Shown: positions 26,618 through 31,999 of the stretch, one piece after another
Layout of the letters: every line of letters begins with the position of its first letter
Position numbering within the stretch: position 1 is the stretch's first letter
Assembly (NCBI GenBank): GCA_016196885.1
Contig: JACPWU010000046.1
Span: 30,001-62,000, forward strand
Direction of reading: 5' to 3'
DNA: 32,000 bases
Source of the DNA: Chlamydiota bacterium
GTDB taxonomy: Bacteria > Auribacterota > JACPWU01
Notes under the pieces: generated by a model
Seen by the model: the letters and a program-made list of their open reading frames with translations, nothing else
Told to the model about the DNA's origin: nothing
Database searches by the model: none
Made by a program: the position numbers and the translations under genes

Positions 26618-29600
26618 CTACATCTGCGTCTGAGTCAAATCCATCATAGCTTTGAGAGAGGCGAGGCGTTTGGTGGACCGAAGTTGAAGATGCCTTTTTT
26701 GATTCATCTCATCCATGGCAGGGGGATCTATCGACCGAAGGTCGTCACTTATTTTTTGTCCATGCTGGGCTAAAATGTCGAGAATCACAGCCAGCTTGGC
26801 TTGGTCTAACCTTCCCTCCACAACCCAAGCCATGACACTATTCAACTCATCTCCCAAGCGTTCTTTCAAAGAAGAGGACACAAACCATATTTCTTCTAAA
26901 CTCTGACCCGTCATCTCCTGTCCAAAGCGCTTTTTCGCCTCTGTCTGAATCATCTGAAGGTAATTTTGAGGTGAAAGACGTGTCTTTCCTTCCCGGATGA
27001 CAAAAACCTGAACATTCTTGAGATTTGGAGAAAGGCTTAAGGCCTGTCGGGCTGACTTCTCTAACACTTCATCACTTTCTTTAACATTTTCATTCACAAA
27101 AACAGGAATCAATCCCTTGAAATCTTCTTCTTTTCCGGCCTCTCTCAAATCATTTAGATATTGATTCAAGGCTGTCGGATCCACATGCATTTGACCCTGA
27201 TCCGTCACAGAAATTCCGACAATATCCTGATCCATGATAGAAACTTGATGGGCGGGAAGATGAGAGATTTGCTCTCGATGTTGCGTTTTATAAACCCGCC
27301 CCATCTCAACCCAAAGAGAACTGCAAACCACTTCTACTTCATGGGTAGAGGGATTGATCATCCTGACCCGTGCAATCACATGAGCCCTTTCACTTGAACC
27401 AGGCTCTTCAGGCAGATTTAAATCCAAAGTTGCCGGATTCTGACCCTCCCAAGATTCAAGGGCTGTTAATAAGTAGGAAAGAAATTCTTCGTCTAAATTG
27501 GCGTTTACGATATGAATCCTAGAGGATCTTGATGTTAGGACAAGATCCCTCGTTACTCTCGGGATGACACTTTCAGTAGAAGGATCTTCCCACATCGCCG
27601 CCAGTAAATCATCCAGATAAAGACTTTCAGTATAGTCTGAAAATCCTTCATACTGAGGAATGTGTCTCGGAAGTTCTCCTTTTCCATTCATGATAAAATT
27701 CGCTATTTTTTCAAGCTCTTGATCCTTTAGATCTAATCCGCGAACAGCTCCTGCCAATTGCAAAAGATCCCTAAAAATAGCTGATTTTGCCTGCCGCCTT
27801 CCTTCTTGATCCACTTTCTCTCCCTTCTCCATGGCCCCAATCAATTTTAATACAGCTTGCCTCAAAGCTCCCACTCTCACATTTTCTCGAGTGATCAATC
27901 GAACCACTCTATCTAATGCCTTCTCAAAAGCCTCATCTCGATCTAGCTCGTTTGTTTGACCCATCAAGAGTCGCAACTGATTGAGAAGAAGCCGGCGAGC
28001 ATATTCATCTACCCCCCTCTTAGGGTCAAGTCTTTCCTTGACTACATCTCTACCCAGCACCGTCGCCACCCACTCCTCCCATCCCAGCTGAACAGGCCTT
28101 CCCTCTTCCATGAGCCATTTGAGTTCACAAATATTTTTGTCTGCATCATAAGCTATAAGGTCTGGATACTTTTCGGATAATTGAATCAGTTCTTGAATTT
28201 CATTTTCATAATCTTCTTGTGCCAACTTCATCCTTCTCTGTTCCTGAAGAGCTTTTTCGTGAAGGTCTTCCAAGAAGGCATATTCTTTTTCTGTCATGAT
28301 CTGACGCGCTTCTACATTCCGGCCTATTAAATAATCTTCCAATCTTTGAATAGATTGAGGAATGAGAGAAACACCCTCCACATCTTCCATAAGTCTTTTT
28401 CGCCCTCGGGCTTGGTTTTTTGCCTGGATGGCCTCTCTCAAAGTATAAAAATCGTGATTCTGATTTTGATAAAGTTGTTTCATCTCTCTCATCCATTTTC
28501 TAAGCCCATGAAAAAACAGGGTAAATTTCTTTTTGGATTGACTAGATTTAACACCCATCAGAGTCTCCCTATCGCCCATCACAACCAATCGATCTATCGA
28601 GCGACTCAAAGCCACATTCAAACGATTCAAATTTCGAATATGACCCACCTCTCCAGCAGAATTGCTCCTGACAAAGCTGTAGATCACCACGTGGTTTTCC
28701 CTGCCTTGATAGCTATCTACCGTTGAAACTTGCTCACGAACAAGCCCCTCTGCTCGATCTGGATTCATATCTCTTTTCTGAGTTAAATAACTCTTTAAAA
28801 GATCTCTTATCAAATCCACTTGTGCAGCGTAACCGGTTAAAATGGTGATCTGTTCAGGTCTATAACCCGAAAGCAGGGCACGCTGATATTCCCGAAGAGC
28901 TTGTTCAGCCTCTTTCAGATTTTTATAACTTTTCCCTTCTTTCTCTTCATTGGGATGATTTCCTTCCATAGGAACATCTACCATTCTCAATGTATCCCTT
29001 TCCATCATTCTCCAATACTTAGGAACCATCAACCTTCTATAAAACAATAAACCCACTAAAACTGTAATCGCAGGATGAGATCGATAATTTCTCGCCAAAA
29101 ATACTTGTGGGTATCCTCGATCCCATCTTCGACCCATGCCACTTCTCTTCATCAGTCTTAAAAATTCTTTTCCATGACCCGCCATCCATTGACTTTCAAA
29201 ATAAGGCTGCAACTGTCGATGATCCCCTGCTAGAACAACTTTCTCCCGAGCCTTGGCCACAGCCAGCAAAGTCTCCGCCTCATTCACAGTCCCGGCTTCT
29301 TCAACAATCACAACATCAAAATCATTTCGATAAGTCTCCGGCACAAGACCCATGGAGTGAATCGTCGCACCCACGACATAACCGTTCCCGTTTAAATTCC
29401 AACGGTGTTCACATATCCTAGCTCCTTCTCTATCATATTGATTAAAATTCTGACGATCTCGAACCCAATACTTTCTCAACTTTTCAAGAATTCTCTCATC
29501 TCCTCCACCATCTACCCCTTTGTTATACACACGCATGATGGGAAGTTCTATTTTGTCTAAACGGGCCAACAAATGATCCACAGCACGATTGGTCCTGCTC

Positions 29601-31999: not shown

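Follow-up and report, generated by a model that had tools for sequence, protein, structure and literature searches.

The stretch of DNA analysed here (hereafter the window) comprises 32,000 nucleotides of the Chlamydiota bacterium assembly GCA_016196885.1 (contig JACPWU010000046.1, positions 30,001 to 62,000 of the forward strand), and one end of it is occupied by a giant minus-strand gene that carries a Upf1-like helicase core among several other modules. The open reading frame (ORF) terminates with a stop codon at 26618..26620 and then stays open to 31999, giving 1,793 codons within the window. The sequence beyond window nucleotide 32000 was read on contig JACOUD010000031.1 (67,210 bp; GCA_016178005.1), which carries exact protein matches to the penicillin-binding protein 1C (PbpC) and alpha-2-macroglobulin (A2M) neighbours of the giant gene in the window. 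We found that at least 1,768 further codons of the giant frame lie upstream of nucleotide 32000. On the second contig 3,243 open codons were read directly, and the gene call there is 3,561 aa with a start computed 2 nt from the contig end. The same ORF was returned by an exhaustive HMMER protein search (1.84 billion representatives) as a 3,554-aa call, named P0044 (window residue = P0044 residue minus 1761). The part within the window is the C-terminal half of a protein that is at least 3,561 aa long, and the true N-terminus is missing because the source contig ends there. The stretch of the source contig beyond the window is referred to as L002 (L002 coordinate = 36348 minus window coordinate). 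NCBI labels the source proteins as coming from a 'Chlamydiae bacterium' or 'Chlamydiota bacterium' metagenome-assembled genome (MAG), a label that is unverified.

A preliminary description, made from the window alone, had recorded a protein of more than 1,790 aa whose frame was open to the window edge and whose N-terminus was unseen. The giant ORF proved real and no stop was found up to 31999; its actual size is at least 3,561 aa and not about 1,800. The unseen upstream partner genes that had been envisaged gave way, once the upstream sequence was recovered, to a continuation of the same frame, with no partner gene before the contig end. A codon-usage log-odds profile trained on housekeeping genes favoured the giant frame over nearly the whole ORF, the exceptions being the intervals over minus-strand genes (around L002 1200-1500 and 1950-2250) and the final interval at the stop codon. 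An alternative genetic code was rejected as the reason for the long ORF, as the neighbouring genes translate normally under table 11. The modules of P0044 were mapped by local phmmer and hidden Markov model (HMM) mapping against the matches of the exhaustive search. Their order is a haloacid dehalogenase (HAD)-like region with a DxDGT motif, hydrophobic helices, two copies of a domain that we call module A, four beta repeats, a superfamily 1B (SF1B) motor with a linker and a C-terminal extension, and a C-terminal module of 465 aa.

The helicase core (28568..29743, minus strand; window aa 753-1144, P0044 2514-2905) was identified from Pfam (AAA_12, E 2e-33; AAA_11, E 3e-24), from phmmer against the PDB and from its motifs. 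The nearest solved relatives were IGHMBP2, Upf1/Nam7, ZNFX1, Aquarius, DNA2 and Sen1 (E 1e-26 to 1e-11). Motifs I (GGAGSGKT, 29660-29683), Ia (VVSRTNRAVD), II (VIVEEAG, 29291-29311), III (LAGDHRQLQP), IV (ARNYRSHP), V (VDSYQGRE) and VI (NVALSRS) were all present in order, in line with the earlier report of all seven SF1B motifs of the Upf1/DNA2 type. The EEAG at motif II that had been singled out as unusual was likewise seen. The three closest homologues read (I/V)IDEAGT at this position, so the D-to-E change is peculiar to this sequence, and 'DEAG' without Q is typical of the family. On these motifs the motor is a member of the Upf1-like SF1B helicases (AAA_11/AAA_12; COG1112), with which it shares the same two RecA-like domains and the order of motifs I-VI. 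It differs from them in having no CH zinc-knuckle, R3H or nuclease domain, in a Walker B of EE rather than DE, and in its accessory parts, which here comprise a beta-repeat array that is new together with a linker and C-terminal extension specific to the family. Upf1 proper and IGHMBP2 were rejected as identities, since no CxxC (as in the Upf1 CH domain) is present and the IGHMBP2 equivalog TIGR00376 scored 162.8 bits against a cut-off of 348.9.

A motif scan of the 3,554 aa detected no HxK(x)4D and no CxxC, and this agrees with the earlier statement that a phospholipase D (PLD) motif, a zinc-finger cysteine cluster and a nuclease motif were all missing. The protein contains 12 cysteines, 7 of them in the window part, and Pfam scans of the full protein and its flanks detected no nuclease or kinase domain. 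A word-index homologue search with the full fragment returned helicase-core matches only, mostly to eukaryotic senataxin, ZGRF1 and DNA2, and the same searches with the C-flank and the N-flank gave no homologue; relatives of the flanks were found only by the exhaustive HMMER search. The flanks had been described as matching nothing recognisable. This held for Pfam, NCBIfam, PADLOC and PDB sequence matches, which cover the core only, and did not hold for the flanks as such, which are structured and recur elsewhere. An HExxH at window aa 56-60 and a four-fold repeat of ~112 aa at aa 144-610 had both been overlooked.

Upstream of the helicase in the protein, we identified four tandem all-beta repeats of ~112 aa each (30170..31570, minus strand; window aa 144-610, P0044 1905-2371) by self-alignment, HMM and AlphaFold2. 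The units are 23-38% identical to one another in the self-alignment and follow the consensus W..G..LSTG..RRFYD..W.Y.TRR..SRL.. They are rich in aromatic residues and mostly net-basic (net charges +7, +4, -1 and +8), a composition that fits nucleic-acid binding. An AlphaFold2 model of two tandem units reached a predicted local distance difference test (pLDDT) score of 91.2 and a predicted template modelling (pTM) score of 0.80, with seven strands and a short helix per unit, and Foldseek detected no structural relative of this model in the PDB or BFVD. It was noted that 10 of 14 repeat members weakly match Pfam Pcf11_C over ~25 residues, which we treated as a motif-level resemblance. The repeat HMM detected further copies in P0046 (six; 3,164 aa), P0047 (seven; 1,583 aa) and P0048 (four), the last a repeat-only protein of 462 aa labelled Spirochaetota, together with five weak copies in P0090 and matches in two small proteins, P0061 and P0063. 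Six contigs with P0048 are on record, and in the four of them examined the gene starts 137-177 nt from the contig end. The assemblies seem to break just upstream of this gene, which would leave any upstream partner systematically missing, and the P0048 contigs give no context because all of them break ~150 nt upstream.

The repeats are joined to the helicase by a family-specific linker (29744..30169, minus strand; P0044 2372-2513), and the helicase is followed by a helical C-terminal extension of ~160 aa (28085..28567, minus strand; P0044 2906-3066). The linker lies in a continuous alignment with P0046, P0047 and P0085, and the alignments with these three proteins end at P0044 ~3066 (window aa ~1305). 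P0046 aligns over P0044 1781-3066 (784 bits) and P0047 over 2024-3060 (548 bits). P0085 (1,091 aa) aligns over 2354-3066, covering linker, helicase and extension, and its N-terminal repeat differs. Because P0046 and P0047 align continuously, and because P0047 opens with Met and its gene is intact within its contig, we regard repeat array, linker, helicase and C-terminal extension as an evolutionary cassette, judged from these alignments, that can stand alone (1,583 aa) or be embedded in a larger protein (3,164 aa).

The N-terminal end of the window fragment belongs to module A, a domain of ~200 aa with an HExxH and a downstream Glu, of which the giant ORF has two copies (P0044 1089-1323 and 1671-1876). 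The second copy enters the window with its C-terminal half (31655..32000, minus strand; window aa 1-115; identified by HMM, AlphaFold2 and Foldseek), its start lying beyond the window edge, and its HELRH falls at 31820-31834 (minus strand; window aa 56-60). In the exhaustive HMMER search the first ~100 aa of the fragment matched ~50 other proteins, most of them 1,000-6,126 aa long; a local HMM counted 62 copies of module A among these proteins, ten of which, besides P0044, have two full copies. An alignment of 35 sequences showed H147, H151 and E162 to be invariant, the Glu standing 10 residues after the second His of HExxH, with E148 near-invariant. The motifs S..LFEDH..NGFIGIN and G..HELxHE were also near-invariant.

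An AlphaFold2 model of module A built from this alignment reached a pLDDT of 90.9 and a pTM of 0.87. The listed Foldseek matches to it in the PDB were nearly all zinc metallopeptidases (E 0.09-0.5, probability up to 0.92, TM-score to query 0.3-0.4), mostly M1 aminopeptidases (ERAP1/2, APN, LTA4H), together with the minigluzincin selecase and an M60 peptidase. No Foldseek match in the PDB fell below E 0.001, a profile search of PDB sequences found none, and 4 of 35 members weakly match Pfam DUF2268 ('predicted Zn-dependent protease'). From its motifs and its model, module A is a predicted zincin-like domain that probably binds metal and may be a peptidase. The family is absent from Pfam-A and NCBIfam. 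Module A resembles the gluzincins (M1 and the minigluzincins, for example selecase) in placing its HExxH on a helix and in its invariant downstream Glu; it differs from them in having no sequence-level match to any Pfam peptidase family beyond the weak one to DUF2268 and in its additional invariant FEDH..NGFIGIN motif. The spacing from His to Glu in thermolysin or M1 enzymes is longer than in module A.

The proteins that carry module A combine it with varied partners. In P0051 (4,963 aa; L008 8001-22892), an SNF2 helicase and a methyltransferase lie between two copies (aa 95-291 and 2077-2294), an arrangement that parallels the placement of module A before the Upf1-like cassette in P0044. In P0049, module A occurs alongside an M48-like segment and an ABC1 kinase, and one carrier comes from Candidatus Theseobacter exili (Auribacterota, of the Planctomycetota-Verrucomicrobiota-Chlamydiota (PVC) group). 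At locus L003 (19640-28207), the gene directly after P0046 is also a giant (2,855 aa), with matches to His_Phos_1 and a CheR-like domain, so that giant modular genes occur there in tandem. This second gene weakly matches the HExxH core of module A (E 8e-5).

The last ~465 aa of the protein form a C-terminal module (26621..28027, minus strand; P0044 3086-3554) that has no Pfam match and a single relative among the 1.84 billion representatives, the C-terminus of P0045. The two are 40% identical (BLASTP, E 8e-107) and conserved to the last residue, including the terminal ...LASLKAMMDLTQTQM. P0045 is a protein of 2,740 aa from another 'Chlamydiae bacterium' MAG; it has no helicase and also possesses the N-terminal transmembrane region of P0044. 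In these alignments P0044 and P0045 have their two ends in common, and their central parts differ. The stand-alone cassettes lack the C-terminal module and the helicase-less P0045 has it, so this module is not the helicase's obligate effector. It was noted that the last ~25 codons (26621-26700, minus strand), ...RLASLKAMMDLTQTQM, are almost identical to the ...RLASSRALMDLAQRQM of the otherwise different P0045, and the extreme C-terminus could be a C-terminal signal or docking element. Compared with the libraries searched, the module A family, the beta-repeat family and the C-terminal module are all new.

The N-terminal half of P0044 lies outside the window. No recognised domain was found over ~1-300, and HAD-like motifs were noted by eye over ~300-560 (DLDGT at 307) where Pfam gave no match. 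Three or four hydrophobic helices at 584-668 are common to P0045, including the motif HHRMNLxYLNQ, and a further hydrophobic helix at 1329-1347 is followed by a third HExxH. This third motif (HEAFH, 1458-1462, in AHEAFHIDH) sits between the two copies of module A and was matched to no family. With ~5 hydrophobic segments, the giant protein is probably membrane-anchored.

The segment at P0044 ~690-1064 lies opposite three protein-like minus-strand genes (block L002 1021-2259, outside the window). Two of these, matching DUF5647 (E 7e-28) and DUF7718 (E 5e-29) in Pfam, are intact on the opposite strand at L002 1125-1720 and overlap by one base (stop TGA 1400-1402, start ATG 1398-1400); neither is recorded as a called protein. 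The third is a coiled-coil ORF of 119 aa on the opposite strand at L002 1900-2259. An 87-nt direct repeat, 83% identical, brackets the DUF5647/DUF7718 pair (L002 1021-1107 and 1792-1878; 771 nt apart and in frame). Over the 600 codons of this block, the giant plus frame contained 0 stops, while the other plus frames had 29 and 43. When the three antisense genes were resampled with synonymous codons, the stop-free probabilities were 0.025, 0.09 and 0.014-0.06, and the combined estimate, taking their product with ~66 intergenic codons, was roughly 1e-5 to 1e-6, an indication that the frame has been kept open by selection.

Immediately downstream of the giant ORF sits a classical A2M-PbpC pair (18353-26347, minus strand; Pfam), consisting of an alpha-2-macroglobulin of 1,905 aa with MG domains and a bait region followed by penicillin-binding protein 1C. 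The downstream genes further include sulfite reductase and amino-acid biosynthesis (threonine, lysine, leucine), and this local repertoire, with the A2M-PbpC pair, is unlike that of a reduced pathogen. A typical MNT-HEPN toxin-antitoxin module (8633-9356, minus strand; an NTP_transf_2/Polbeta nucleotidyltransferase of 114 aa and a HEPN protein of 130 aa) lies between leuA and valS. Neither the Rfam nor the tRNA scan of the window gave a match, and a promoter and terminator scan of the intergenic region 26200-26800 gave nothing informative. At the five relatives' loci (L003, L004, L005, L007 and L008), the genes were solitary among unrelated housekeeping genes, with no shared neighbour and no nuclease. 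A GTDB genome scan with the whole protein gave no match, and a scan of JGI metagenome contigs for the single conserved repeat motif was equally negative. A tblastn search against 72,556 plasmids and 50,697 phage records detected helicase-core matches only, with the flanks absent, and a phage or plasmid origin was rejected on this basis.

We also assessed the suggestion, made in the preliminary description, that the gene might represent an undescribed anti-phage system. PADLOC, which had been proposed together with DefenseFinder as a check, returned MkoA models (201 and 154 bits) and MkoC as its best matches, all confined to the helicase core. The MkoA match spans positions 633-1103 of a 1,112-position model, and the homologues P0047 and P0085 likewise matched MkoA/MkoC best and over the core only. 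A match to Nhi (E 7e-6) covered ~50 aa around the P-loop. Mokosh combines a COG1112 helicase with a PLD nuclease, encoded as the neighbour MkoB or as the C-terminal fusion MkoC, and type I MkoA has a Ser/Thr kinase domain (10.1101/2022.05.11.491447). P0044 likewise contains a COG1112-type helicase (MkoA HMM 201 bits, core only); it differs in that no PLD nuclease is present (no HxK(x)4D, no PLD Pfam match, alpha-2-macroglobulin as the downstream gene and the same ORF upstream) and, compared with type I, in that the 3,554 aa have no Pkinase match. Mokosh was rejected, as no PLD nuclease was found in or adjoining the ORF and no kinase was found. Nhi was also rejected, its N-terminal nuclease not being found here and its PADLOC match being confined to the P-loop area.

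The DUF4011-AAA_11-AAA_12-DUF3320 architecture, named at the outset as a possible known identity, was rejected because Pfam scans with E as high as 1 detected neither DUF, whether in the full protein or in the flanks, and no full-length match to a characterised family was found. The nuclease usually paired with such helicases, already described as not visible, was found nowhere in the ORF, and no context, housekeeping or otherwise, was conserved across the homologues. The idea of an undescribed defence system fared poorly against this evidence, given a single gene with no nuclease, housekeeping neighbours and no conserved partner, and a defence role is unsupported by any positive result.

Giant multi-enzyme modular proteins with transmembrane regions are already known as a phenomenon in the PVC group and Omnitrophota, with examples of ~40,000 to 147,000 aa (West-Roberts et al. 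2023, 10.1101/2023.11.21.568195; 10.64898/2026.06.07.730766). Those of Omnitrophota, of the Archaeovorin or dockerin types and tens of thousands of aa long, have numerous transmembrane regions and a divergent SecA_DEAD (10.1101/2023.11.21.568195). P0044 resembles them in its very long ORF, its transmembrane segments, its mosaic of enzymatic parts split by unannotated stretches and its rapid divergence; embedded peptidase-like domains, there proposed to cleave the protein, are a further likeness. It differs in being an order of magnitude shorter and in that its helicase is Upf1-like, and, unlike those giants, it gave no SecA_DEAD, C39 or dockerin match in Pfam scans. The punctuating HExxH zincin-like module found here is not named in either report (10.1101/2023.11.21.568195; 10.64898/2026.06.07.730766).

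We lean, somewhat beyond an even judgement, towards a giant PVC protein of separable modules in which a 5'-3' translocase cassette is combined with a multivalent beta-repeat binding array. This leaning covers the architecture and general mechanism, and any biological role would be proposed with far lower confidence. By sequence comparison, each module was shown to recur in other proteins in other combinations, and the whole is a single-gene entity and not a multi-gene defence system. Like the motors of the Upf1 family, the cassette would use ATP to move 5'-3' along single-stranded RNA or DNA as a translocase or helicase, with the basic, aromatic-rich beta repeats supplying multivalent substrate binding. 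It would have been fused into a multi-enzyme giant protein of the PVC kind, which the zincin-like modules may process or regulate.

Several points weigh against this account. The activities of the modules are predicted only, from sequence and models; taken one by one, the Foldseek matches that module A gave are weak (E about 0.1), nucleic-acid binding by the repeats is read only from their composition and their linkage to the helicase, and the Walker B D-to-E change could reduce ATPase activity. The family is very rare, its single conserved repeat motif being found in 1 genome (that of P0046) among 185,579 GTDB species representatives. In addition, the taxon label is NCBI's and unverified, the N-terminus is missing where the contig ends, and the existence of one continuous polypeptide of at least 3,561 aa is unproven, as three antisense protein-like genes, two of them with strong Pfam matches, overlap ~1.3 kb of the upstream ORF.

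This last point raises the alternative that the 3,561-aa call is a chimera. The helicase gene would then start at ~L002 2258-2366 and encode ~2,450-2,490 aa, and the HAD and transmembrane part would be a separate gene whose frame is continuous by coincidence. ATG codons are available at L002 2258, 2261 and 2366, the coding potential of the plus frame dips at the antisense block, and the intact DUF5647 and DUF7718 genes, with the coiled-coil ORF after them, occupy the opposite strand there. However, no Shine-Dalgarno-like sequence precedes any of these three candidate starts, and the coincidence of a plus frame free of stops over 600 codons is what the chance estimate above speaks against. We consider a chimera unlikely, while giving it more weight than any other alternative below. 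Either the giant frame was selected to stay open through an old antisense insertion, in which case the ORF would be kept open across 1.3 kb encoding three functional opposite-strand genes, or the long call is a chimera; whichever holds, the window fragment belongs to a protein of more than 2,400 aa that starts with module A.

The remaining alternatives concern what such a protein would do. MARTX toxins are giant proteins that carry several unrelated effector modules together with an internal protease, and P0044 could by analogy be an effector polyprotein, secreted or translocated to act on a host or prey cell, and the zincin modules would release active pieces from it, including the helicase cassette. 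Such a role would suit the invariant HExxH and Glu and the peptidase-like fold of module A, its occurrence once or twice per giant beside unrelated enzymatic cargo, its position abutting the start of a cassette that is free-standing elsewhere, the extreme C-terminus conserved in two different giants, and the organism label Chlamydiota, which is NCBI's. The likeness to MARTX is in concept only, an analogy and not a homology, as no RTX repeats, cysteine protease domain or type I secretion system genes were seen. Neither a secretion signal nor a secretion-system gene nor a cleavage site was identified, the full biosynthetic pathways in the region make host dependence less than obvious, the peptidase assignment is weak, and autoprocessing is pure inference; on balance, an effector polyprotein appears quite improbable. 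Another proposal, which we rate as equally doubtful, is that module A represents a new autoprocessing family of zincin proteases that punctuates giant membrane-anchored PVC polyproteins and releases their cargo (the beta-repeat/Upf1-like cassette, SNF2 with methyltransferase, or the ABC1 kinase). If this were true, the giant ORFs would count as polyproteins of bacteria, comparable to MARTX toxins or to the polyproteins of viruses.

A little less probable again, in our view, is a one-protein defence factor against phages or plasmids that would be a relative of Mokosh, Nhi or Hna, with the helicase as the sensor of foreign nucleic acid and the C-terminal module as the effector. The MkoA and MkoC matches of P0044, P0047 and P0085, and a family that is rare, patchy and fast-evolving, would be expected of such a factor. 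These matches are nevertheless limited to the helicase core of a protein that lacks a PLD motif, a kinase and a nuclease, the gene does not lie in a defence island and the housekeeping neighbours vary between loci, and the proposed effector is the very module that is missing from the stand-alone cassettes and found in a helicase-less protein. Least probable of all, and very unlikely in our judgement, is a housekeeping helicase of RNA or DNA metabolism incidentally fused to other enzymes. It would account for the position of the gene among same-strand housekeeping genes, but a cassette-specific repeat motif present in one genome of the 185,579 representatives, the lack of conserved synteny and the widely varying domain content of the relatives all argue otherwise.

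Even if true, the favoured account of a modular giant protein with a translocase cassette and a beta-repeat array adds no new defence system, and no long-standing question is made directly testable by it. What it would provide is three things that the searched libraries lack: an Upf1-like helicase cassette, rare and equipped with an array of tandem beta repeats; a zincin-like domain that is widespread as 'punctuation' in the giant proteins of bacteria; and a shared 'chassis', consisting of an N-terminal transmembrane region and a C-terminal module, that takes different cargo. These features would offer a way of studying how uncultured PVC bacteria build, and perhaps process, their giant modular proteins.

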